This document shows, piece by piece, positions 2,355 to 24,578 of a stretch of DNA of 26,912 nt. Made by a program: the position numbers and the translations under genes. The notes beneath the pieces are model-generated. The model worked only from the letters and a program-made list of their open reading frames with translations, was not told the origin of the DNA and did no database searches. This stretch comes from a virus (taxonomy: Duplodnaviria; Heunggongvirae; Uroviricota; Caudoviricetes). Positions within the stretch are counted from its first letter, which is position 1. Each line of letters opens with the position of its first letter. The stretch is from IMG/VR virus record IMGVR_UViG_3300033124_000732, one strand, 5' to 3'.

Positions 2355-2723
2355 TTAGCCACCTGCGGCTTGAATTCTTCTCGCTAGGGAATTGATCTGT
2401 TGGTGTAATGCCTGTGCCTCGAGGTCTCGGGGCATCATGCGGTCGGCATATTGATAACTGTCGCCGCCTAGTTGTTTATATTTGTCTTGTTTTGCAGACA
2501 GTTCTCTTTTCAATGCATCAACATCAACTGACGCTGCATCTGCTGCTGCAGATTTTGCTGCTTGTGTTTGTCGAGCCAGATACGCTGTTCGATCTTGTTT
2601 GCGTAGCTCGTCATGTTCTGGATCACCATGTATACGGAGATTGGCAAATTGAGGATTATTTTTTTGTAGCTGTTTGAAATAATCTGTCAAACTATCGTTT
2701 TCAAATAAATCAGCAAGTTTCAT
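2355..2723 (-). CDS. Hypothetical protein, putative internal head protein
   Basis: 122-aa ORF with N-terminus MKLADLFE, coupled to the upstream gene (TAA-T-ATG). Confidence 0.75.
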   Translation of the reverse strand: MKLADLFENDSLTDYFKQLQKNNPQFANLRIHGDPEHDELRKQDRTAYLARQTQAAKSAAADAASVDVDALKRELSAKQDKYKQLGGDSYQYADRMMPRDLEAQALHQQINSLARRIQAAGG

Positions 2724-3411: not shown

Positions 3412-3851
3412 GCTCTTTCGTCTTTCAAGAAACTTCTCAGCATCCAGCCATGCTTTTGTTGAGCATCAATGCGTTCTGCTATAAAATTAGCGATGCCTTG
3501 TTGATTTTCTTGTTCAGCAACAGCAAAGCATTGGTTAAGAAGTTCCAACAGTTGGGTGTTGTTAGCCAACAGTTCTTCAATCATGAGTCGGGCACGAGGT
3601 ATCTTGGTCTGGCCCTTGATTTCTGACAGCTCAGCAAAACGCTCAAAACTGCCCGGCGAGTAGTCGCCTAGTGCGCGAATGTATTCAGCGGTTCGGTCTA
3701 TTGATCCGTTATAGACTTCTTCATACAAGTTTCCAAAAAACTCGTGTAATTGAGCAAAGTCCGGTCCTTCCACATTCCAGTGAAACAGCTGGGCTTTGAT
3801 GCTGAAAGCATACTCAGTTGCCAGGAGAGTTTTTAAAGCGTCCGCTAACAT
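3408..3851 (-). CDS. dps: Dps / ferritin-like DNA protection protein
   Basis: HWNVEGPDFAQLHEFFGNLYEE...DRTAE ferroxidase-centre pattern and C-terminal KHGWMLRSFL. SD AAGGA upstream. Confidence 0.92.
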   Translation of the reverse strand: MLADALKTLLATEYAFSIKAQLFHWNVEGPDFAQLHEFFGNLYEEVYNGSIDRTAEYIRALGDYSPGSFERFAELSEIKGQTKIPRARLMIEELLANNTQLLELLNQCFAVAEQENQQGIANFIAERIDAQQKHGWMLRSFLKDERA

Positions 3852-4032
3852 GTTTATTCCTTTTGTATTCCTTAGGCGTGTTCGGTGTAGGATCAGAGCC
3901 TGTTACATATTTACCACTTAACATGGATCCGCCAGATCTTGACACCATGCCCAATGGCTGACTTACAGGTGCTATAGACCCTGAACTAGTGCCACCTACT
4001 GACGCATTTTCCATTATTTCTTTCATTCTCAT
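3814..4032 (-). CDS. Small hypothetical protein, putative internal head protein
   Basis: N-terminus MRMKEIME followed by a Ser/Gly-rich segment. ATGA overlap with the upstream gene; overlaps the dps start by 38 nt. Confidence 0.65.
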   Translation of the reverse strand: MRMKEIMENASVGGTSSGSIAPVSQPLGMVSRSGGSMLSGKYVTGSDPTPNTPKEYKRNKHVSGRFKNSPGN

Positions 4033-9486: not shown

Positions 9487-9501
9487 GCACTTATGTATGG
9501 G

Positions 9502-10005
9502 TCAATGTCCAGTGGCTGCTAATTCAGCGCCTTTGTTGAATGAGTTTGACCATGAAGCTGCACTCTTGCGTCCTCGAGCAACACTCCAATTGTATCCAGC
9601 ACGGTGTCCGGAACAGTCTTTGGTGCATTGTGAACCCATAAAGGTGAGCTCGTTTAGCTGCTCTTCGTTTAGTCCAAACCCTTCACGAATCTCATTCATT
9701 AACTCGCTTACACTGGCTTCTGTGTTGGGCAATTTACCTCTATAAGCATCATCAATGTATGGATCACCTTCTTCTACTGTGCCTAATGCGTATGAAAAGA
9801 AACCTTCCCCAGCGTTTTCTATAATAACAAAATAAAACTGGTCATCAGTTTCTTGACCTTTCACACTAAACATAAAAGTGCCATCGCTTTGACGTTGCCC
9901 TTTCCAGCCCGTGGCTTTCATTGCGCTGTTGATTTTGTTAACAACCCAAGGCCATGTCAACACAGTTCCTAGGGTGTTTTCAGTTACGATGTCTGAGATT
10001 CTCAT
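9502..10005 (-). CDS. Two-module hypothetical protein with a C-terminal Cys/His module; putative internal head protein
   Basis: N-terminus MRISDIVTE; linker GLNE-EQLNE; then the FMGSQCTKDCSGHRAGYNW module. Confidence 0.75.
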   Translation of the reverse strand: MRISDIVTENTLGTVLTWPWVVNKINSAMKATGWKGQRQSDGTFMFSVKGQETDDQFYFVIIENAGEGFFSYALGTVEEGDPYIDDAYRGKLPNTEASVSELMNEIREGFGLNEEQLNELTFMGSQCTKDCSGHRAGYNWSVARGRKSAASWSNSFNKGAELAATGH

Positions 10006-11225
10006 TTTTTAGGTTGTTGAGCTGTTGGTACATTTCGGTACACACGCCGGGCAGGATCATACACAGTTTTTAACGGACCCAGTCCAGCTAATTTTTTCAC
10101 TCTGGCAACCATGTCTTGATAGTCATCGCCGTAGTCGGCTTCGGGCGGATCACGATAGTCAGCACCCTTTTGTTGTTCGCCTTCGTCCATGCCTGATTTT
10201 TTGTTACCATGTGGCCATTTAATGCCCATACTCTTGTCTAATTTGGCAGTTAAACCTTTGTCTAAATGATCAATGTCTTTGGCATATTTGCCCGGATCAT
10301 AATAAGCACGTGGTGCTTCACCACCACCATATGCACCACTGCTACGATGTATCATGCCTGTTTTGGTTTTTTCAACTTCGCCTTCTGTGGTGCGGTCAGG
10401 AAGTTTTTTGTAGTTGCTGTTTTTGTCTGCAGAGTGAAACTCTTTTGCCACTGCCGGACTGATGCCAACTTTCTTGGCAAATTTGGGATTGTGTGCTGCC
10501 GCTGCCATGGTGCGGAATTGTGCTTGGCTCACTGACTTTTCTGCCAACTGGTCTTCTGCCACACCTTGCTCTTTAACAGGCCAAGGCTTTAATGGGCGAC
10601 CTTTAGCATTGAACCAACCTGTTTGCGTGGCGTTGTCCCACTTGGCCCAAACTGCGCTATCACCGACAACTGTTTCACCTTTGCTGTCGGTGCGAAATTC
10701 ACTCATGTCATCAAACACCCGTGCGTTAATGCTATCAGTGGCTCTGTCCCATTCTGCTTTGTCTTTGGTCTTGACATTATCTGTAGTCATATCAGCATTG
10801 CGAATCACAGGACCCGGCATGTGGTCAACATCATGAGGGAAGCCTTCCGCCATGCCTTTCTTCTTGTTTAACTCTTTGTTTAGAATCTTTTCAGCATCCT
10901 GGGCTACTTTTTTAGCAGTGGTTGCTTTAGCAGTGTATTCTTTCTTGCCGGCGTCTGAATCGTTACTACCATCACGACCCGGAGGAGTTTGTGATTTGTC
11001 CATTTCCATCACACCTTCGTTCTTGCTGTTGCCATAGTTGTCAGCGCCTTTTTTACGACACTGAACCAGTCGTCCTGACGCATAGGCTGATGGCCATACC
11101 TTAGCCGACGCTTTGACTTTATAGTAACAGGCATCTTTTTTCTCAGCCAGGATCAAGTCTGAAAACGAAGGACCGCCGCATTCGGGGCAGGTTTGATGAG
11201 ATTCAAATAAGTCAGTTATAATCAT
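10002..11225 (-). CDS. Multi-module hypothetical protein, putative internal head polyprotein
   Basis: N-terminus MIITDLFE; modules CPECGG, KKDACY...WPSAYASG (DUF5872-like), KSVSQAQF...AAAAHNPKFAKKVGI and MVARVKKLAGL, separated by x-x-E linkers such as QGVAE. Confidence 0.8.
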   Translation of the reverse strand: MIITDLFESHQTCPECGGPSFSDLILAEKKDACYYKVKASAKVWPSAYASGRLVQCRKKGADNYGNSKNEGVMEMDKSQTPPGRDGSNDSDAGKKEYTAKATTAKKVAQDAEKILNKELNKKKGMAEGFPHDVDHMPGPVIRNADMTTDNVKTKDKAEWDRATDSINARVFDDMSEFRTDSKGETVVGDSAVWAKWDNATQTGWFNAKGRPLKPWPVKEQGVAEDQLAEKSVSQAQFRTMAAAAHNPKFAKKVGISPAVAKEFHSADKNSNYKKLPDRTTEGEVEKTKTGMIHRSSGAYGGGEAPRAYYDPGKYAKDIDHLDKGLTAKLDKSMGIKWPHGNKKSGMDEGEQQKGADYRDPPEADYGDDYQDMVARVKKLAGLGPLKTVYDPARRVYRNVPTAQQPKK

Positions 11226-11575: not shown

Positions 11576-14500
11576 TTATTTATTGCGTTTGGCTTTAGCC
11601 CGCCCAGCCTTCATGTTGGCCATCCAATGTGCCAGTTGCCCTTTGCGACCGCCTTGTTTGGCCACTTTACGCAAGGTGCTTACTGATGCTTTGGTGGGCA
11701 CGCCGTGTCTTTTTGAATCGCCCTTGTCTTGCGGATTCCGACCATCAGCAAAGTTTTCAGGCAGTTCTTCCTTGCCCAAGAATGTTTGAGCAAACAACTG
11801 ACATTCGCCCCATAGTTGGTCATTCTCAGTCACATACACACGGAAGTCAGCGTCCGAATCGTCATGCTGTGTGGGGTCTTGATAGCCGGCATATACTTTG
11901 TGTATGCCTACAGAGTTTAACAAGTCTTTGCAACTTTCTCCGTGGCGTTCTTCCATGGGCGAGTTGCAGGGACTGCAAGTTGTAACCACAATACTACCTT
12001 GTGGAATTTCACCAATGGATTTTCTATACTTGTCTATGGCCACTCGTTCAGCATGGCGGCGTGTGCCATCTTTAGCAGGCAAGTTGATGCCGTAGATCAT
12101 TCGGTTGTCGGGGTCAATCACACAGGCAGCAACTTGTCCATAGCGTTTGGGATCTCGCTGTTGACCTTGTACAACCATGCGACAGCATTTGGCCAACACT
12201 TGGTCCAGCTTGGGTCTATCATGCAGTTCATAGTCGCTGGCATCAGCTTCAGTTACATTGTAGGTAGGATCAGTCTTTTGACGCGGCATGCCTGCAGGTT
12301 GTGCGGGATCCACAGGATCAATGTCAGTAGTGGTTAGCCCAGTTTGTTTCAATGCCTGTATATACTGATGTTCTAGATCTTCGTCACCAAAACTTATGAT
12401 AGCACTGGGTGGTCCTTTGCCAAAGTCATGTTTGCCCAGACCCTTCATGTTTGAAATATGCTGACCCAGTTTGTACCAGTCATACACATCACTCACATCC
12501 ACTCGCACAGTGCCAGCTGGCATTGTGGGCGGTGTCTCTGGACCAGGAGGATCAAAATTGCCGTAGCGATCCTTGCCTTCTGTCATGATAGGATACACTT
12601 CAAAGCCTTCGCCTGACACGCCCCGTCCATTGTTTCGCAACCAAGTGGCTGCAACTCTGTTGGCATCCGATTGACTATTACCCACGCCTGAGAATCTATA
12701 AACTTCTTCACCGTTGACCAACACCTTCCATGCACCAGAGAATGTGCCTGGCGTGGCTCTCTGTTGTGCCAAGGCTGCTGTGGATCCTGCAACAGCAGAC
12801 CGGCGGGTACGATAGTCAGCATCTCCATGGGTTTCACGGTACTGTAGTAATCTTTGTATAGCCGCACTATCATCGGGGGCAAGGAATGCAACAGCAATTT
12901 GCCCAGTATCATTATTAAAAATTTCGTATTGTTGTGGGCTTGCAAATTCTAGGTCTGGCTCAATGTCAATGATACCGTTTTGTTCAGCATCTGATCTAGA
13001 ACCTTCTCTAGTTCTTACTTCAAAGTCGTTGGGATTGTGGCCATTTTGACTTAGCCAAGTTCTTGCTTCTGATTCTGCGGCACCGCGATTTGTGAACTCT
13101 GTATTGTAGTACACTTGGTTGTTGTTTCTGTTGGCCACTTCCCACGGACCTGGACCAGTTGGGCGTAAAGGGTTTACATTTGTTTGACTGTTGGCTGATT
13201 GAATAGTGTAATCGTCGTTACTCCATCCTTGAGTGTTCATAAAATCAGTTGCTTGGATCATAGCAGCATTTTGATTGTCTGCATTGAAGCGATGAACAAC
13301 TTCTTGATCACTGTTACGTCGAATTTCCCAGTTTGGAGCACCACGTGCTGCACCAAACTGTGATGTGTCTCGTGGTTCTGATGGTTCAATCTCTTGAGCA
13401 ACTAATGCAAGACCATTTCCTGGTTGCCGTGTGTTGTAATCCTGTATCCAGTCTTGCGCAGCCGCCTGGTCAGTAAATCTTCTAGTTACAGACTGACCGT
13501 CAACATTCATTTCAGCATAGCGATCAAGCATTGCTACCCAAACACCCCAATTGCCAGAGGTTGCACTGTCTTGATCTTGTGCAGGTTTTTCTTCGTATGG
13601 ACGCACGGGCTTGGCCACAATGGATTGTCTTGTGTTGGTCCACGAAGGATAGCCATCTGGGCCTAGGGCCTTTTCAATGGCTTCTTCTCGAGAGGTAGCA
13701 ACAACTTCTATACCGGCAGAACTTTGCGGGGGATTGGTAACGCTCCACCACATCTTTTGATTGCCGGCTTCACCGCGTTTTACCTTGCGTTCTAGTTGTG
13801 CTTGTTTCACAAAACTACGCAAGGCAGCCTTGGGAATCTTGCCTGCCACATAGTCTGAGAAGTATCGGATTGTGTCTGAATCCTTTTGATCCTGAGTCAA
13901 CAGCTTGTACAGTTTCTTTTGGTATTCTTCTCGATAGGCTTCAGGATTTAATGCCGCACTCATAGCCACTGTGAATCTCAACAGAGTGTTTTCAATCTTG
14001 TCAAAGTTGTCGTCCAACCAGTCGCCACCGGGCGAGCGGAATTCAATGTGTCCGTCTTTGGTGTTGATTGATGTGTATTTGTCTGTGCTGCCTGAATGGA
14101 TGGCTTTAGAAGCCAGTTCACCCATTTGGCCCTTCATCTTGTCCAGTAAACGTTGTGCGTCTTCAGGGTTGGATCGCACACGATCACGCACCTTGCCCAA
14201 GGCGGATTTGGTATAGGTATTTGAGCTACGACCAAATTGTTTGAGCACATACTCGTCGCCCAACAGAAGGGCCAATTTCACAAAGTCCAATCGGTCTCTG
14301 CTGTAGTCAGGCACTGAAATGTTGATGTGCAAGCCAGTTGAACTGTTGGTATAAACACCCATACGTCCAGCCCAGGACTTGACAGCGTTCAAATCTTTCA
14401 ATAGTTCATCTATGGGCATGGGCGGGCTCACAAACTCCAGGCCTTCGTCGCCTGGATTGTCGCCTTCCAAACTGCCGTCTGGTTCCACCACATAGAACTG

Positions 14501-16582
14501 ATTGCTTGGATCGGGTCTGGCACCGGACTGATGATATCTTGTGTTCACTCGCACTTCACGGCCCACAGCCTGACTGAATTCGTCAGCCACTTGATCTGCG
14601 TCAATCTCGCCGCTGTTTATGCTAGTCCAGTATGGCCAAGTTATATCATAGGCACTTTCAATGCCACTCATGCGGTCAAGGTCTTCGGCATCTAACCAAT
14701 CGCTTTCGTCCCAGTTGTCCTGATTTTCTTCACGGTATTCATCAAAGGCCTGATTGTAGTAATCACTAGAAGGATCAGCATAAACATTAGCAACAAATTG
14801 ATCAAGTGAATCGGTTTTGTCTGCATCAAGGTCTGCCCACTCGTCTTCATCTACATTATTCACAATCCATTCTCTGAGGTATTCTTCGCCGTCCATGCCC
14901 CAGGAATCGCGAATTTTATCATCCTGCCATTCAGTGAAATCGTTGTACATTCTGTCACGTAATTCAGCAACTTCTCTTCGACCGTTGTAGTCGCCGTCAT
15001 GAAAGAAGTTCACAGCATCATCAATACTAACACAGCGTTCATCCTGATCATAGTCGGGTTCCTGTTCAGGATCTTCAGACTCCATGCCAGGCACAATCAT
15101 TTCAAATTCCATGCCAGCAATGGCACCTGTCTTGGCTGCTTCTCGGCGTAGACTCTTGCTGCCCATGTTTATTTCAAACAGGTCTTGTTCTTCAAACAAT
15201 TCAAATTCTTGGGCAAGGCTTTCTGCCAACTTTATCTTGCCGTCTGCTCGCAACAGTTGTGGATGACCTTGTGCATCAGTAGCCAGTCTCATCTTGTTGG
15301 CTTCTTTACCTGTTTGTCCTGGTTGCACATCAACAGTTAGTGCCATCTTAAAGCGTGGATCGTTTGCTTGTGCCTTGGTAGGAATATATCCTGATGATTC
15401 ACGAATGGCTTCTTGGTCAAACAAGTCTGGGTGTGCATCTGCAAAGTCTCGCATGATGATGCCTGCCACAGCGTGTGCTTCATTTTCTATAGGTGACCCT
15501 GTGTTGCCAGATGTGTGATCCAATTGTTCTAATTCATTTTGACGACAGTGTGCCAGTTCATGTGCTGTGGTTCGCAAAATATCCATGATATGACGATTGC
15601 GAATGTTCACATGCAACACATGTTGATCGGGAATGTACATGCCAAACGAATGATTTTCTTCACTCCATCCATCATTGTCATGCAGCACAATTTCAGGCAT
15701 GCGCTCAATGCCCAAGCGTTCAGCAGTGTCTTGAATGAACTGTTGCACCATGTTTTCAGTGTCATCTTCGTTCAAGAACATTTGTGTGCTGGGTGCCACG
15801 CCATCTGGTGAGCTGTAGGGTTGACCTTGATGGCCTTCTGCAAATCCCCAATGGAATTGCGGAGCATGGTCTTGTTCTTTTAGACTTAGTTCATGATCTT
15901 GTGCGGCTGTTCTGGCTGTGCGCAAATCTTTAATGCAGCCTTTGTTGCGCAGAATTTTAAACACAATGTTTTCGCAACCAAACTCACCGTGAGCATCCAA
16001 GCCACTTTGACGCATGGACTTGATCTTGTCCCACAGTCTGCTCATGTGTTCAGCATTGCCAGATTGGATGGCAGAATGTATTCTGGCATCCAAATCTTCT
16101 ACCTTGGCTCGCACACAGGTATCATCAATTCTAGCACGTTTTCTGCGTGGTACTTGAATCCATTCTTCACGTGGGATAGAATACTCGCCTTGGCTCACAG
16201 GGGATTCGGCTGCATTTTGCACATACAATTCCACAGGCACGCCGCCAATGGCTAGATTGTGTTCGTCGTTGTATTGATATTTTTTGGCATTGAACAGTTC
16301 CTGATAAACTTCGTCGTCAGCAGGAAATTCTACCACAAGGTGTAGATCAATGTCGGAATATGGAGTATAGCTGTAGGCAGCATTGCTGCCTGAGATGGTT
16401 ATGTCTCGGACGTCAAGGTCGCCCACGCCAAGAAATTCGCGAAAATTGTCCGCAATGGCCATGAGTTTTTCACGCACCTCGGGCAACAAGTGCTCGTCTC
16501 GCCCCCAGATTTTAGGGTTGAGACGATTGTGAAACTTTACAGCATCGCTTAGTTTAAAGGAGTCCAGTTCTGTAATATGCAT
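11576..16582 (-). CDS. 1668-aa polyvalent protein: pol-beta-superfamily nucleotidyltransferase + HExxH metallopeptidase + amidoligase + six repeats + RibD-like deaminase + small modules
   Basis: GS...SDIDLH (NTase); HELAH at 15548-15562; GMEFE / EPDGSL / LEFVSPP / TGLHINIS / IEFRSPGG (amidoligase_2-type COOH-NH2 ligase); HAE at 12047-12055 with SPC...C...QDP (deaminase). Confidence 0.88.
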   Translation of the reverse strand: MHITELDSFKLSDAVKFHNRLNPKIWGRDEHLLPEVREKLMAIADNFREFLGVGDLDVRDITISGSNAAYSYTPYSDIDLHLVVEFPADDEVYQELFNAKKYQYNDEHNLAIGGVPVELYVQNAAESPVSQGEYSIPREEWIQVPRRKRARIDDTCVRAKVEDLDARIHSAIQSGNAEHMSRLWDKIKSMRQSGLDAHGEFGCENIVFKILRNKGCIKDLRTARTAAQDHELSLKEQDHAPQFHWGFAEGHQGQPYSSPDGVAPSTQMFLNEDDTENMVQQFIQDTAERLGIERMPEIVLHDNDGWSEENHSFGMYIPDQHVLHVNIRNRHIMDILRTTAHELAHCRQNELEQLDHTSGNTGSPIENEAHAVAGIIMRDFADAHPDLFDQEAIRESSGYIPTKAQANDPRFKMALTVDVQPGQTGKEANKMRLATDAQGHPQLLRADGKIKLAESLAQEFELFEEQDLFEINMGSKSLRREAAKTGAIAGMEFEMIVPGMESEDPEQEPDYDQDERCVSIDDAVNFFHDGDYNGRREVAELRDRMYNDFTEWQDDKIRDSWGMDGEEYLREWIVNNVDEDEWADLDADKTDSLDQFVANVYADPSSDYYNQAFDEYREENQDNWDESDWLDAEDLDRMSGIESAYDITWPYWTSINSGEIDADQVADEFSQAVGREVRVNTRYHQSGARPDPSNQFYVVEPDGSLEGDNPGDEGLEFVSPPMPIDELLKDLNAVKSWAGRMGVYTNSSTGLHINISVPDYSRDRLDFVKLALLLGDEYVLKQFGRSSNTYTKSALGKVRDRVRSNPEDAQRLLDKMKGQMGELASKAIHSGSTDKYTSINTKDGHIEFRSPGGDWLDDNFDKIENTLLRFTVAMSAALNPEAYREEYQKKLYKLLTQDQKDSDTIRYFSDYVAGKIPKAALRSFVKQAQLERKVKRGEAGNQKMWWSVTNPPQSSAGIEVVATSREEAIEKALGPDGYPSWTNTRQSIVAKPVRPYEEKPAQDQDSATSGNWGVWVAMLDRYAEMNVDGQSVTRRFTDQAAAQDWIQDYNTRQPGNGLALVAQEIEPSEPRDTSQFGAARGAPNWEIRRNSDQEVVHRFNADNQNAAMIQATDFMNTQGWSNDDYTIQSANSQTNVNPLRPTGPGPWEVANRNNNQVYYNTEFTNRGAAESEARTWLSQNGHNPNDFEVRTREGSRSDAEQNGIIDIEPDLEFASPQQYEIFNNDTGQIAVAFLAPDDSAAIQRLLQYRETHGDADYRTRRSAVAGSTAALAQQRATPGTFSGAWKVLVNGEEVYRFSGVGNSQSDANRVAATWLRNNGRGVSGEGFEVYPIMTEGKDRYGNFDPPGPETPPTMPAGTVRVDVSDVYDWYKLGQHISNMKGLGKHDFGKGPPSAIISFGDEDLEHQYIQALKQTGLTTTDIDPVDPAQPAGMPRQKTDPTYNVTEADASDYELHDRPKLDQVLAKCCRMVVQGQQRDPKRYGQVAACVIDPDNRMIYGINLPAKDGTRRHAERVAIDKYRKSIGEIPQGSIVVTTCSPCNSPMEERHGESCKDLLNSVGIHKVYAGYQDPTQHDDSDADFRVYVTENDQLWGECQLFAQTFLGKEELPENFADGRNPQDKGDSKRHGVPTKASVSTLRKVAKQGGRKGQLAHWMANMKAGRAKAKRNK
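11577..11582 (-). promoter_or_regulatory. Late promoter box TAAATA
   Basis: TAAATA-AACAATC-ATG(11569); overlaps the last codons of the upstream polyprotein gene. Confidence 0.65.
12585..13760 (-). repeat. Six diverged ~45-60 aa tandem domain repeats inside the polyvalent protein
   Basis: Units begin KMWWSV, GNWGVW, PNWEIR, GPWEVA, QQYEIF and GAWKVL, and share the pattern W/Y-x-V...F...A..A...W/F...G...(Y/F)-x-V. Boundaries are approximate. Confidence 0.7.
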
Positions 16583-16590
16583 ACGAACTG

Positions 16591-16596
16591 TATTTA
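16591..16596 (-). promoter_or_regulatory. Late promoter box TAAATA for the polyvalent protein
   Basis: TAAATA-CAGTTCGT-ATG(16582); no SD in the 17-nt gap. Confidence 0.7.
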
Positions 16597-20772: not shown

Positions 20773-21465
20773 TTGTTTTTTTACTATGGGCAGGGTTTTT
20801 CTAACCATGCCCGGACATATCATACTCAACATGGTTTCGTATTGTAAACTGTTGTGCTCAATGTAGTAATAGCTTTCAGTGGCGTCGCCGCGCCACCAGT
20901 ACATTTGTTTTGGACTGATTTCAATATTTAAAAATGCCTGCAAACTCTTGCTGGCTGCAATGTCATCGCCCTGGGTGGTTACCCATGCAGCCAGTCGGGC
21001 CTTTTGTGTTTTGCCAAGTGATCGTCCACGGAAATAAGTGCGGTACTGATATTGTGGATTTTTCAACAGTATGGTATCAGGTGGCAAGTTGAGTTCTGCT
21101 CGTTTGAGATCTACAGACTCAATCCAATCGCACGCCATCAATCGACCATGCAGGCCAAGATTGTTTGTGTACACTGTGAGAAAATTGTTAAAGAACACCA
21201 TTTTCTTTGGGTGAGTTTCTGCGGCTAACAGTGCTCGCATGCCTTCTAAATTGTCGCGACAGCGTGTGGTAAATTTGCTTTCAAATTTTTCGTTATATCG
21301 TTGGTAATGAGAATTTCTACTTTGTTCGTAATCCATTCTCATGCGAATGTGCGACAGCATTTTGTTTTGATCAAGACTGCGAATACAGCCAATCTCGTCC
21401 TGCTGCCAGGTCATGGCATATTCATATGCGTTGTAATACAACGAACTACGCGATTCACTTCTCAT
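20770..21465 (-). CDS. Hypothetical protein
   Basis: 231-aa ORF whose start overlaps the clpA stop; no recognisable motif. Confidence 0.75.
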   Translation of the reverse strand: MRSESRSSLYYNAYEYAMTWQQDEIGCIRSLDQNKMLSHIRMRMDYEQSRNSHYQRYNEKFESKFTTRCRDNLEGMRALLAAETHPKKMVFFNNFLTVYTNNLGLHGRLMACDWIESVDLKRAELNLPPDTILLKNPQYQYRTYFRGRSLGKTQKARLAAWVTTQGDDIAASKSLQAFLNIEISPKQMYWWRGDATESYYYIEHNSLQYETMLSMICPGMVRKTLPIVKKQ

Positions 21466-23728
21466 TGTCCACCACTATGATTCCATCAGCGTTCACACTG
21501 GCCACAACTTCCACCGGGATGTCTGCTTGAACATCAAACACAATTTCATCCGCCACAACATCAGCAGTGATTGAGCAATCACGCAAGCGATCAAACAAGA
21601 TCTTCTTGCTCAACGGCACACGGATCAATTCGTCAATCTTGCGAGAGAGTGGTCGCGCACCCATCTTCGAATCGTAGCCTTTGTCAGCAAGTGTGTCAAC
21701 GGCTGATTCGGATAGATTGAGGAGTATACCTTTTGCAAGCAAACGCGTTTTGAGTTCATCCACAAACTTGACCACAACTTTCTTGATGGCCAAGGTGTCC
21801 AGCTTGGCAAACTTGACAATCTGGTCAATCCTGTTGCGCAGTTCAGGCCTAAAGAACTCTTTGAGGGCTCGGTCATCTTCACCAGTCTTTTCAAAGCTAC
21901 CAAAGCCGATGTTATTTGCTTCCGAATCTCGTGCTCCTAAGTTTGAAGTCATGATGATGATAGTGTTCTTTAGATCCACACTCTTGCCGTTTGCACCTGT
22001 GATGCGACCTTCGTCCAACATCTGCAACATGATGTTTACCACATCAGGGTGTGCTTTTTCAATTTCGTCAAACAACAACACAGCAAATGGGCTCTTGCTG
22101 ATGTCAGAGATCAGTTTGCCACCACTCACATTAGAGTCGTCAAATCCCACGTAGCCAGGAGGAGCACCAATCAAACTTGATACAGTATGGCGTTCTTGAT
22201 ATTCACTCATGTCATATTTCAACAGTTTCATGTCCAAGTTGTCGGCTAACAATCGAGCCAATTCTGTTTTGCCTGTGCCTGTGGGACCCAGGAACAAGAA
22301 ACTAGCAATGGGCTTTTTGTCTTGACCAATACCTGAGAAGTTGATGTACACACGTTCTAGCACCGAGTCTACTGCGGCGTCTTGACCATACAACCGTTGT
22401 TTGATGTTTGAATCCAGTTCCACAATCTTTGCAGAACGCTCGTTCTGCAAGCGATCCATGGGTACAGAAGTCACACGCGATACCTGTGCCATGATTTGAT
22501 CCCTAGTGACTTTGATTGTACCAGCATCTTTCACACGCTCTCTAGCACAGGCAGCATCCAACAAGTCAATTGCTTTGTCAGGATTCTTTTTGTCGTGAAT
22601 GTATCTGTTGCCAAACTCCACAGCACTCATTATGGCATCAGTTTCGATCAGCACATTGTGAAACGTTTCCAGCCGGGGAGATAAGCCAATAAGAATCTGC
22701 TCTGTGGTCGCAGTATCCGGCTCATCAATACTCAAGCGGTAGAATCTACGCATGAGTGCGCGATCTTTCTCAAACGATTCATAGTATTCTTCCCAAGTGG
22801 TTGACCCAATAACTTTCAAACTGCCCTTGGTAATAGCAGGCTTCAACATGTTGGCAAAGTCTAATGAACTGTTTGAACCTGATCCAGCACCACGCATGGT
22901 GTGTGCTTCGTCAATGAACAGGATGCATTTCTTCTTGGCTTCTAAGGCCGCAATCACTGCCTTGAACTTTTCTTCAAACTCACCGCGATACTTGGATCCT
23001 GCCAGCAGTGTGCCAATCTCTAGCGACCATACTTCGTGATCTTTCAAGAACTCTGGCACGTTGCCGGCTATGAGTTCTTGTGCCAGTCCATCCACAATGC
23101 AAGTCTTGCCCACACCAGGATCGCCAACCATCAGCACATTTGATTTGAATCTACGAGCCAACACAGCAATCATTTCTGCCAGTTCTTCTCGTCGACCAAT
23201 CAACGGCTCCAACTGATTGTTTCGGGCGCTATCAGTAAGATTGGTACAGTATTCTGTCAAGATTTCTGTGGCCTGTTTGTCAGTCATTTTGACGTCTTGT
23301 CGATTGTAGCTGGACTCCCAGTGTTTCACAAACTCAGTCTTTTTCACGCCATACTTGAGAAAGAAGTAGTGTGCGTGGCTGTTGGTTTCGGCCATGATTG
23401 ACAGATACAAGTCAATAGTGGTCATTGCTCGACGCCCTGTAAACATCACCTGCACATTGGCCCTGTTGAATATGCGTTCAATGGTCTGTGTTTTCTTTGG
23501 CTGATAGTCTTCTGTTTTTGTGATACTGCGCAGACTGCTCAAGTAATTCACAATTTCTTGTTCCATCTGTGTGACTTCCACACCAAATCGATCCAGGCAC
23601 TTGCGGAATGGATCGTACTGAATCAGTGCCAGCAATAAATGCTCTGTGATCACAAACTCATGTTTCTCAACACGAGCAATGCTCACTGCTTGTTCAATGA
23701 TGTGTTCAATTTCGGGATTTTGTTGCAT
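21455..23728 (-). CDS. clpA: ClpA-type Hsp100 AAA+ chaperone / protease ATPase subunit
   Basis: Clp N-domain, Walker A GDPGVGKT and GPTGTGKT, pore loops GSKYRG and GYVG, ClpP-docking IGF loop (NNIGFG), and no ClpB middle coiled coil. ATG 23728 is preferred (AAGGA 5 nt upstream). Confidence 0.92.
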   Translation of the reverse strand: MQQNPEIEHIIEQAVSIARVEKHEFVITEHLLLALIQYDPFRKCLDRFGVEVTQMEQEIVNYLSSLRSITKTEDYQPKKTQTIERIFNRANVQVMFTGRRAMTTIDLYLSIMAETNSHAHYFFLKYGVKKTEFVKHWESSYNRQDVKMTDKQATEILTEYCTNLTDSARNNQLEPLIGRREELAEMIAVLARRFKSNVLMVGDPGVGKTCIVDGLAQELIAGNVPEFLKDHEVWSLEIGTLLAGSKYRGEFEEKFKAVIAALEAKKKCILFIDEAHTMRGAGSGSNSSLDFANMLKPAITKGSLKVIGSTTWEEYYESFEKDRALMRRFYRLSIDEPDTATTEQILIGLSPRLETFHNVLIETDAIMSAVEFGNRYIHDKKNPDKAIDLLDAACARERVKDAGTIKVTRDQIMAQVSRVTSVPMDRLQNERSAKIVELDSNIKQRLYGQDAAVDSVLERVYINFSGIGQDKKPIASFLFLGPTGTGKTELARLLADNLDMKLLKYDMSEYQERHTVSSLIGAPPGYVGFDDSNVSGGKLISDISKSPFAVLLFDEIEKAHPDVVNIMLQMLDEGRITGANGKSVDLKNTIIIMTSNLGARDSEANNIGFGSFEKTGEDDRALKEFFRPELRNRIDQIVKFAKLDTLAIKKVVVKFVDELKTRLLAKGILLNLSESAVDTLADKGYDSKMGARPLSRKIDELIRVPLSKKILFDRLRDCSITADVVADEIVFDVQADIPVEVVASVNADGIIVVDNEK

Positions 23729-23751
23729 TAGCATCCTTGGTAGTTTTTGTT

Positions 23752-23789: not shown

Positions 23790-23795
23790 TATTTA
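23790..23795 (-). promoter_or_regulatory. Possible late promoter box TAAATA upstream of clpA
   Basis: Includes the dnaJ stop codon; 61 nt upstream of the clpA ATG. Confidence 0.4.
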
Positions 23796-24578
23796 TTCAC
23801 GGTATTTTTCAATGGCTTCGAGCAATTCGGGGCGAATGGTTTTGGGTATTGTGGGCATCACACGGATCATGAGATCACCAGTGTTGCCTGATCGATCACG
23901 CAGGCCATGTCCACGCAATCTTATGAGTGTTTTGGGTTGTGTATACGGCGGCATGCTAGTGGTCAATTGGGATCCGGTAAGTGTTTGTACTGTGATATCT
24001 GATCCTAGAATCATGCTCCAGATATCTGCTGTGACATCAGTCACAAGGTCTAGACCATTGCGTTGCCATAAGGGATCTGGATGCACTCTAAACTGTATGA
24101 CCAAATCTCCTCCACCAGGTGCTAGGCCCTGATACTGCACGTTGTCACCATCATTGATACCAAGTGGTATTTCCACTTCAATGGTGCTTTGTCCGTGTGG
24201 TGTGCCCACTGCTACTGGTCGAGTACCACCTTGTGCCACATCAGTCATGCGGATCCATAACGTCATTCTGGTGTGCGATTGCTGTCTACGTGGTTGTTGC
24301 CCAAATGGTGATTGGCCACCAAACATGCTTGAAAAGATGTCATTCATGTTGAAGTGTGCGCCACCAGGCATGCCAGAAAACTGAGGGCGTGGATTGTCGT
24401 AGTCAGCTCGTTTGGCAGCATCGCCTAGGGTGTCATAGGCTGCTTGTATCTCTTGAAACTTTTGGGTATTGCCACCTTTGTCAGGATGATGCTGTGAGGC
24501 CAACTTGCGGAAGGCTCGTTTGATTTCATCCGGTGTGGCAGTTCGGGCAACACCTAGTGTGGCATAATGGTCAGACAT
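23793..24578 (-). CDS. dnaJ: Class B J-domain co-chaperone (DnaJ/CbpA-like, no zinc finger)
   Basis: J domain with HPD (QHHPDKGG), a G/F-rich linker, no CxxCxGxG repeats, and a C-terminal GDL...GLRDRSGNTGDL domain. Confidence 0.92.
   Translation of the reverse strand: MSDHYATLGVARTATPDEIKRAFRKLASQHHPDKGGNTQKFQEIQAAYDTLGDAAKRADYDNPRPQFSGMPGGAHFNMNDIFSSMFGGQSPFGQQPRRQQSHTRMTLWIRMTDVAQGGTRPVAVGTPHGQSTIEVEIPLGINDGDNVQYQGLAPGGGDLVIQFRVHPDPLWQRNGLDLVTDVTADIWSMILGSDITVQTLTGSQLTTSMPPYTQPKTLIRLRGHGLRDRSGNTGDLMIRVMPTIPKTIRPELLEAIEKYRE

Follow-up and report, generated by a model that had tools for sequence, protein, structure and literature searches.

The window analysed here is a stretch of 26,912 nt from a tailed virus of the class Caudoviricetes (IMG/VR record IMGVR_UViG_3300033124_000732). 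The subject is one of its genes, P0001, the reading frame of which is uninterrupted over 1668 codons (11576-16582, minus strand). Its product consists of four enzyme modules (a nucleotidyltransferase, a putative HExxH peptidase, an amidoligase and a deaminase), some nine small modules and a basic tail, with disordered linkers between them. We consider that this protein is probably packaged in the head of a T4-like jumbo phage of ~350 kb from a lake and cut at several junctions. Complete separation of all four enzymes appeared rather doubtful. We infer cleavage, packaging and injection of P0001 from related sequences and from the virion proteomes of cultured phages.

More broadly, we tentatively propose, with slightly less than even confidence, a combinatorial system of cargo cassettes, with polyprotein processing as a second task of the capsid maturation protease. 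A grammar of leader, junction and optional +13 tail would be shared by more than 100 proteins, and P0001 would give at least six products, including the four enzymes. The shared grammar would let effector modules shift between stand-alone genes and polyproteins.

The source record is a 95.7-kb fragment, 27% complete by CheckV, which implied a phage of ~350 kb. The fragment encodes a T4-type DNA polymerase, a clamp loader and a baseplate-wedge-like gene. It is collinear with a complete relative, G001 (364 kb, with terminal repeats), at ~85% nucleotide identity over 46 kb aligned. G001 encodes a homologue of P0001 together with a portal, a gp21-like protease and a gp23-like capsid protein, the setting of a phage with portal-terminase packaging.

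Stand-alone homologues and cassettes mark the junctions

The earlier note on this DNA, made from the sequence alone, had proposed that a polyprotein is cut apart at hydrophobic-x-Glu motifs lying at almost every domain border. All nine motifs that it listed were present at the residues claimed (236, 249, 272, 395, 454, 470, 1335, 1445 and 1609). Each module of P0001 was also found as a separate gene in related phages. The ends or starts of these stand-alone forms aligned at 235/236, ~389-395, 470, 1334, 1446-1449 and 1609/1610. The placement of the motifs at borders was borne out for six of the nine sites (236, 395, 470, 1335, 1445 and 1609), which coincided with stand-alone homologue ends or with cassette junctions. 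Of the checks suggested in that note, all those open to computation favoured its reading.

The stand-alone nucleotidyltransferases L074, S-CRM01 g125 and S-CREM2 ORF156 all end in LSL(K), corresponding to residue 234/235. The stand-alone HExxH proteins are 190 residues long, start with the leader MRFSQIVLE and end at ~389. In L079, in which the SGYIP module is joined to the core, the V-L-K-E of the leader aligned to A-I-R-E(395). The stand-alone amidoligase cores (L060, L063, L074 and others; 696-884 residues) have a leader that runs into DLFE/INM, equivalent to site 470 (here and below, a slash follows the junction Glu), and stop at the residue aligned to 1333/1334. The stand-alone deaminases, of 211 residues, match 1449-1609. 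The basic tail occurred alone in proteins of 64 and 68 residues (range 64-68) with a leader resembling the T4 capsid-targeting sequence (CTS), and also as the C-terminus of ~40 other leader-bearing proteins.

Public metagenomes yielded 1701 cluster representatives homologous to P0001, of 917-2919 residues (the length range searched), on contigs of up to 365 kb. Their layout was a conserved N-terminal part of ~940 residues followed by a variable C-terminal part. Across the family, the latter holds a deaminase, a GH19 chitinase/lysozyme with LysM, an M23 peptidase, GNAT or M48.

Unrelated modules met at the same junctions. A hydrophobic-x-E motif directly preceded the NFADG start of the tail in 56 of its 58 occurrences, and the sequences upstream belonged to at least 12 unrelated contexts. 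At site 1445, DPTYNVxE was followed by at least 10 unrelated modules across the family, and many unrelated modules followed FEVxPxMxE or PIMxE at site 1335. The G001 homologue lacks the deaminase, and in it NVGE directly abuts NFADG. This indicated that the deaminase is a cassette with its own C-terminal junction, ELPE. In this homologue, PIMTE is followed by an additional GVAE, and the GHQGQP that comes after GFAE in P0001 is preceded by SMRE. A conserved DNA crossover sequence behind the junctions was ruled out as their source; P3 and P2 vary, with 6-19 different tripeptides per site.

P0001 and the G001 homologue (L008:10001-14170) were 84% identical over their best aligned segment (residues 1-1009), and the DNA polymerases of the two phages were reported to share 99% protein identity. 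The two homologues differ in the deaminase cassette, the repeat set and a linker insert. On this evidence, the polyprotein locus is a hot spot of cassette exchange.

Distribution and conservation of the motif

Linkers were defined as stretches of at least 10 residues with a predicted local distance difference test (pLDDT) score below 50 in the AlphaFold models. They comprised 236-273, 391-472, 998-1008, 1067-1082, 1195-1224, 1227-1237, 1254-1281, 1334-1406, 1414-1452 and 1603-1621, together 21% of P0001. All nine listed motifs fell inside them. The whole protein contains 28 [LIVMF]xE motifs, of which 12 are [LI]xE, so that the list of nine was a selection. Seven of the 12 [LI]xE motifs were in linkers (binomial p 0.005; Fisher test among Glu residues p 0.004), as were 11 of the 28 [LIVMF]xE motifs (p 0.02). 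The enrichment went beyond what Glu content would give, because Glu was equally frequent in linkers and domains. Composition was also ruled out as its source, since hydrophobic residues were rarer in the linkers than in the domains.

In an alignment of 120 homologues, the motifs were conserved, in that the Glu at P1 and the hydrophobic residue at P3 were kept while P2 varied. Both residues were retained in 107/115 homologues at 236, 93/120 at 395, 92/119 at 464, 120/120 at 470 and 77/91 at 1335. Retention was weaker at 249 (66/101), 272 (61/114) and 454 (51/112); at 249, the form G-F-[AS]-E was seen in 63/120. Site 464 closes a CTS-like stretch within the second linker, S-L-A-Q-E-F-E-L-F-E (455-464), just ahead of the invariant DLFE(470). 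The motif enrichment is a real but modest signal, and the comparative evidence is decisive.

Leaders of the stand-alone forms

In T4, the CTS (MKTYQEFIAE; PMC8442874) carries internal proteins into the prohead and is then removed by gp21 (PMC8442874, PMC9026906, PMC3012670). The stand-alone forms opened with M-R-A-[QTSK]-E-F-[ILV]-x-E, with variants including MRYQEIKIINE and MRFKEVKKVLKE. The leader core, E-F-I-x-E, is the same as that of the T4 CTS. The pattern M[RK]xxE[FILV]-hydrophobic-x-E was found at 109 distinct starts of open reading frames (ORFs) in 77 loci around the homologues, versus 1 at 9489 internal Met residues. Six ORFs on the 95.7-kb fragment bear CTS-like leaders. Three of these lie directly downstream of P0001 and probably belong to the same cargo set.

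Head module and virion proteins of relatives

The earlier note had looked to a gp21-like protease elsewhere in the genome. None was found on the 95.7-kb fragment, which covers 27% of the genome. In four of five complete ~350-kb relatives that carry the polyprotein, Peptidase_S77 scored above the Pfam cut-off (E 1e-23 to 1e-27). The head genes of G001 are in the T4-like order of portal, acidic protein, 212-residue protease (G001:262533-263171, minus strand), 364-residue scaffold and 398-residue capsid protein, the last being gp23-like (Pfam Gp23, E 7e-98). The scaffold contains 24 hydrophobic-x-E motifs. Residues 1-42 of the capsid protein contain four, and the other 356 residues just one, at 389; the sequence at LKE(42)/NASSGS resembles the maturation region of T4 gp23. 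The motif-packed scaffold and capsid propeptide suggested that a T4-like cleavage grammar operates on the canonical substrates of this phage group.

Stand-alone homologues of two P0001 modules were found in purified virions of T4-superfamily phages. S-CREM2 ORF156 (126012-126725) was 34% identical to P0001 residues 11-235 (E 1e-42), and six unique peptides of it are in the proteome of CsCl-purified virions (Table 3, PMC10665884). Atu_ph07 gp196 (AUZ94978; 500 residues, 57.9 kDa) was 31% identical to the P0001 amidoligase (E 9e-30) and starts with MRWQDISSKKLTE followed by L. In the virion proteome, 14 unique peptides cover 30% of it (PMC6102473 supplementary tables). Its gene is two genes from the portal, and the gp21 homologue of that phage is gp204 (PMC6102473). 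Peptide detection in the S-CREM2 and Atu_ph07 proteomes speaks to presence in the virion, not to processing. The virion data of RsoM2USA cover ten abundant bands only and were uninformative on its amidoligase homologue. The Atu_ph07 'nucleotidyltransferase' gp195 was tried as a relative of module 1 and ruled out as unrelated.

Proposed processing and its alternatives

In the pathway that we propose, the 186-kDa precursor, made late, would join the prohead core. For entry it would use its degenerate leader at the N-terminus, the CTS-like sequence further inside (455-464) and/or the basic tail. At exposed junctions, the gp21-like protease would then cut after Glu. The predicted products are the nucleotidyltransferase (27 kDa), the HExxH peptidase (14 kDa), a basic module (6 kDa), the amidoligase with the six small modules (~97 kDa), a 12-kDa module and the deaminase (18.5 kDa). 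The released tail would be a +13 peptide of 59 residues, which may stay bound to DNA. The products would be ejected with the DNA and act early on host targets. The variable C-terminal cassettes (the deaminase, and GH19 with LysM, M23, GNAT or M48 in relatives) would be swapped between near relatives, as in arms-race cargo. The peptidoglycan-hydrolase domains in the variable region of relatives would fit a protein that enters with the DNA.

Several observations weigh against cleavage of P0001 in the head. The hydrophobic-x-E motifs at 49, 700 and 726, inside folded domains, were as conserved as those at the junctions, so that conservation alone was not diagnostic. The enrichment within P0001 was modest in size and depended on linkers defined from AlphaFold. 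No clear motif was present at the junctions of the six small repeats with one another, and 'almost every boundary' was for that reason the correct wording of the earlier claim. The N-terminus of P0001, MHITELDSF, is not a canonical leader and has only I-T-E at residues 3-5; this degenerate start resembles those of the stand-alone nucleotidyltransferases (MKLTELD; MKKLISE/L).

On the same side, Peptidase_S77 (PF03420) gave no match on the fragment, a result made uninformative by its incompleteness and its lack of the head module; the control genomes gave none either. No match to Peptidase_S77 or Gp23 was obtained in G002 (342,865 bp, 99% complete), which has a polyprotein homologue, in contrast to the rest of the complete relatives searched with each family; either its head module is divergent or the search filter missed the match. 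The T4 internal proteins are cut once, beside the leader (PMC8442874). In SPN3US, the prohead-protease cuts, apart from self-cleavage of the protease, only remove N-terminal propeptides (PMC10052503). We found no precedent for a multi-enzyme polyprotein cut in this way. Finally, the apparently intact HExxH peptidase of P0001 could do the processing instead, as proposed for such domains (PMC5512222).

This last point and the SPN3US cuts favour an alternative that we judged unlikely, namely that P0001 is a classical polyvalent protein. It would enter both the virion and the host essentially uncut, or its own HExxH peptidase would process it, either ahead of packaging or once inside the host; no more than trimming would be left to the prohead protease. 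No homologue departs from the HExxH...E residues. A processing role has been proposed for the metallopeptidase (MPTase) domains of polyvalent proteins, and DdrB (processed) and N4 vRNAP (packaged unprocessed) are cited there (PMC5512222). Against this, the junction motif, with its hydrophobic P3 and its Glu in P1, has the specificity of T4 gp21-type proteases. Leaders on peptidase-free stand-alone modules also end in this motif, and it fills the scaffold and the capsid propeptide of G001. To our knowledge, zincins are not typically selective for Glu at P1, which also counts against self-processing. Junctions of the prohead-protease type, together with the alternating stand-alone, leader-bearing forms, pointed to processing in trans by the capsid protease, not by the MPTase.

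It is improbable that P0001 is a cytoplasmic late enzyme acting, for example, in DNA or virion-surface modification, in which case the motif would be a habit of linkers or would arise as a by-product when cassettes recombine. The gene lies directly downstream of GT2-like and radical SAM genes, and an amidoligase, a nucleotidyltransferase and a deaminase would all be plausible for nucleotide modification. The presence of homologues of two modules in purified virions, the cell-wall hydrolase cassettes in the polyproteins of relatives and the T4-CTS-like leaders of the stand-alone modules speak for virion cargo instead. The wide variation of P3 and P2 at the junctions argues against recombination at a conserved DNA sequence. 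A speculative extension of the proposed cargo system is a pupylation-like reaction, in which the C-terminal Glu of a cleaved small module would be ligated to host proteins by the adjacent PafA-like ligase fold; it is very improbable, because the stand-alone core proteins end in Q, R, S or A.

Domains of P0001

The earlier description of four enzyme domains plus small modules in one gene was confirmed, with the nucleotidyltransferase and the peptidase as putative assignments; the amidoligase and the deaminase scored above their Pfam cut-offs. Amidoligase_2 (PF12224) matched residues 662-855 at 31.2 bits against a cut-off of 22 (E 2.5e-7), and the domain starts at the strand AGMEFEM (489-495). 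The match of dCMP_cyt_deam_1 (PF00383) to residues 1467-1566 reached 42 bits against a cut-off of 25 (E 9e-11). The zinc motifs HAE and C...C of the deaminase were seen in the sequence, and its model matched RibD, TadA and dCMP deaminases (Foldseek E 2e-5; VIA Z 13).

The assignment of the nucleotidyltransferase rests on phrog_36119, an unnamed family matched by residues 14-233 (E 4e-43), and on the motif S-G-S...D-I-D (GS...DxD), which is present together with E118. NTP_transf_2 (PF01909) at residues 56-123 gave 18.1 bits, below the Pfam cut-off of 21. The fold matches, to AadA, CD-NTases and minimal nucleotidyltransferases, were weak (all E > 0.05, Foldseek).

The peptidase was assigned from its invariant HExxH, from phrog_87 and from the predicted order of its structure. 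H341, E342, H345 and E366 were unchanged in 40 aligned homologues. The match to the metallo-protease family phrog_87 (residues 297-373) was weak (best E 2.6e-6, 5/27 members). AlphaFold predicted a helix, three strands, the HExxH helix and a Glu helix in this order, which is zincin-like. The module had no match in Pfam, and none in PDB sequences when searched singly and as a profile.

Six beta-beta-alpha-beta modules of ~50 residues each were predicted by AlphaFold within residues 944-1331. The last of them (1284-1331) was found in essentially all homologues, and ESM Atlas gave no usable match for it. One of the others, 1010-1068 (window ~13379-13555), matched the 70-residue chain 8g9s_A from a study of type I-C CRISPR-Cas3 (Z 5.8, root-mean-square deviation 2.5, 57 aligned residues), a score under the meaningful level in a VIA search dominated by the deaminase.

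A Foldseek search with the model of residues 1-1000 gave only weak matches to glutamine synthetase and nucleotidyltransferases (E > 0.05); the AlphaFold models were too large for clean single-domain structure searches. For the basic tail, ESM Atlas gave only unnamed viral clusters of 58-65 residues. Outside this tail P0001 is acidic. Pfam searches of seven P0001 sub-regions and three neighbours gave nothing except DUF6321 in a paralogous putative cargo protein. With the whole P0001 gene, megablast against cultured phages gave no match, and tblastn matched single modules only.

Late promoter

TAAATA is the core of the T4 late promoter TATAAATA. Of its 48 copies genome-wide, 16 are found no more than 40 nt ahead of an ORF start, versus ~1.2 expected. 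They precede 16 of the 136 ORFs, one of which is a baseplate/tail-fibre-like gene. With the box 8 nt before its ATG and this strong enrichment ahead of ORF starts, P0001 was well described as a late-promoter gene at the level of sequence, and it is predicted to be transcribed late. No Shine-Dalgarno sequence was found between the box and the ATG of P0001. Across the window, the box is often 3-8 nt from the ATG, at many start codons, with no Shine-Dalgarno sequence between them. This implied leaderless or near-leaderless late mRNAs.

Table 1. Coordinates and characteristics of P0001, its parts and the adjoining genes in the window
Feature	Position	Strand	Details
Whole gene P0001, candidate cargo polyprotein	11576..16582	minus	1668 aa, ~186 kDa; stop codon 11576-11578
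TAAATA box, T4-late-promoter-like core	16591..16596	minus	8 nt upstream of P0001 ATG
Module 1, aa 1-236, Pol-beta-type nucleotidyltransferase and helical domain	15875..16582	minus	MHITE/L to LSLKE(236)
Linker 1, aa 237-272, disordered	15767..15874	minus	GFAE(249), FLNE(272); pLDDT < 50 over 236-273
Module 2, aa 273-395, zincin-like HExxH metallopeptidase	15398..15766	minus	H341, E342, H345, E366; end AIRE(395)
Linker 2, aa 396-470	15173..15397	minus	Basic SGYIP...DPRF module 396-445, KLAE(454), DLFE(470); pLDDT < 50 over 391-472
Module 3, aa 471-940, glutamine-synthetase-fold amidoligase	13763..15172	minus	Acidic helical insert of ~150 aa, net charge -42
Six small beta-beta-alpha-beta modules, aa 941-1335	12578..13762	minus	Region end IMTE(1335)
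Module aa 1336-1445, no assigned fold	12248..12577	minus	In about half of homologues; end DPTYNVTE(1445)
Deaminase cassette, aa 1446-1609, RibD/TadA-like zinc deaminase	11756..12247	minus	End ELPE(1609)
Basic C-terminal tail, aa 1610-1668	11579..11755	minus	NFADGRNP...ANMKAGRAKAKRNK; isoelectric point 11.8, net charge +13
Three downstream genes, 115, 407 and 167 aa	9502..11569	minus	Leaders MTYKEILEA, MIITDLFES, MRISDIVTEN

Other genes of the window

Two micro-domain proteins, of 407 residues (10002-11225, minus strand) and 358 residues (G000:27451-28527, on the source fragment but outside the window), consist of modules of 25-90 residues behind CTS-like leaders. Both match PHROGs labelled virion structural and hold CPECGG zinc ribbons and a DUF6321 tail; they also contain a stretch that we take to resemble DUF3008. 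Their modules are divided by a repeated (K/Q)G[MV]AE[GDEH]. In the genome, G[MVLIF]AE was counted 11 times versus 2.2 expected.

A leader protein of 72 residues (3814-4032, minus strand) starts with MRMKEIME/NASVGGTSSGSIAPV, which resembles the predicted maturation site of the G001 capsid protein, LKE/NASSGSTVSGNIA. Such a peptide could act as a decoy or co-assemble with the capsid protein. The ORFs at 2355-2723 (minus strand, 122 residues, MKLADLFEND) and 9502-10005 (minus strand, 167 residues, MRISDIVTEN) have leaders that are alike, and matched no known family.

A ClpB-like double AAA+ ATPase of 759 residues is encoded at 21455-23734 (minus strand; phrog_4871, E 4.5e-239). It adjoins the gene of a 261-residue protein (23793-24578, minus strand), which in its N-terminal part resembles several PHROG families without a name. 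Atu_ph07 has also been reported to have ClpB and DnaJ chaperones.

Implications

Injected virion proteins are the first move of a phage against host defences, and few are known beyond T4, P1, N4 and the phiKZ-like phages. If the proposed grammar is real, the cargo of uncultured T4-like jumbo phages could be read from leader, junctions and tail. It would also provide a natural set of enzyme cassettes, comprising a nucleotidyltransferase, an amidoligase, a RibD/TadA-like deaminase, GNAT and cell-wall hydrolases. The gp21-type protease would then not only remove propeptides but also, in a tailed phage, process a true polyprotein. A suggested use is the loading of several foreign proteins at fixed stoichiometry into T4-type capsids.

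Comparison with known systems

Polyvalent proteins (Iyer, Burroughs, Anand, de Souza and Aravind 2017, PMC5512222) likewise carry several unrelated effector domains per polypeptide, including a Pol-beta nucleotidyltransferase and a zincin-like MPTase, of which P0001 has putative counterparts. They have two to fifteen effector-type domains, commonly with a zincin-like MPTase or other peptidase among them, and occur in phages with portal-terminase packaging or in conjugative elements. By prediction they enter the capsid and reach the recipient cell along with the DNA, and proteolytic processing has been proposed for them (PMC5512222). P0001 resembles them in its many unrelated effector-type domains and in belonging to a phage with portal-terminase packaging. 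The earlier note knew of no characterised example of its domain combination and had overlooked the polyvalent-protein concept. The combination itself is apparently uncatalogued in PMC5512222, since 'amidoligase' does not occur there; 'deaminase' occurs only three times.

The T4 internal proteins IPI-III and Alt (Mullaney and Black 1996; PMC3012670, PMC9026906, PMC8442874) are alike in being encoded by late genes, as predicted for P0001, and in having a leader core, E-F-I-x-E, that ends in the cleaved Glu; for the P0001 group, cleavage at this residue is predicted. The two systems also share a gp21-family protease and a head module in the T4 order, here seen in relatives of the P0001 phage, and diverse, fast-evolving cargo, which in T4 is injected with the DNA. 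They differ in that the T4 cargo is single-domain and cut once by the leader, whereas P0001 has up to about nine junctions in a 186-kDa precursor and a degenerate leader. We know of no T4 counterpart of the basic C-terminal tail module.

The inner-body and ejection proteins of phiKZ, 201phi2-1 and SPN3US are also cut after Glu by a diverged gp21-like protease (gp175/gp245). In these giant phages many head-resident proteins are cut, with redundant propeptide sites, and the cargo is ejected into the host (PMC9026906, PMC10052503). These phages belong to another lineage, without the T4-like replication module, and the SPN3US cuts trim propeptides rather than separate enzymes. Their cleavage motif differs too, and is reportedly S/A/G-x-E, as attributed to Thomas et al. 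(2012).

Retroviral Gag-Pol and picornaviral P1-P3 resemble the proposed system in having one translation product, fixed stoichiometry and maturation cleavage in the particle. This is an analogy only, with no evolutionary relationship. We know of no characterised virion-matured polyprotein in tailed phages.

Polyvalent proteins, the T4 CTS with gp21 and extensive prohead proteolysis in phiKZ-like phages are thus known already. What appears to be new is their combination, in an unannotated and very large family of multi-enzyme precursors with junctions in the grammar of a capsid protease and with modules that occur either fused or as stand-alone proteins with leaders.

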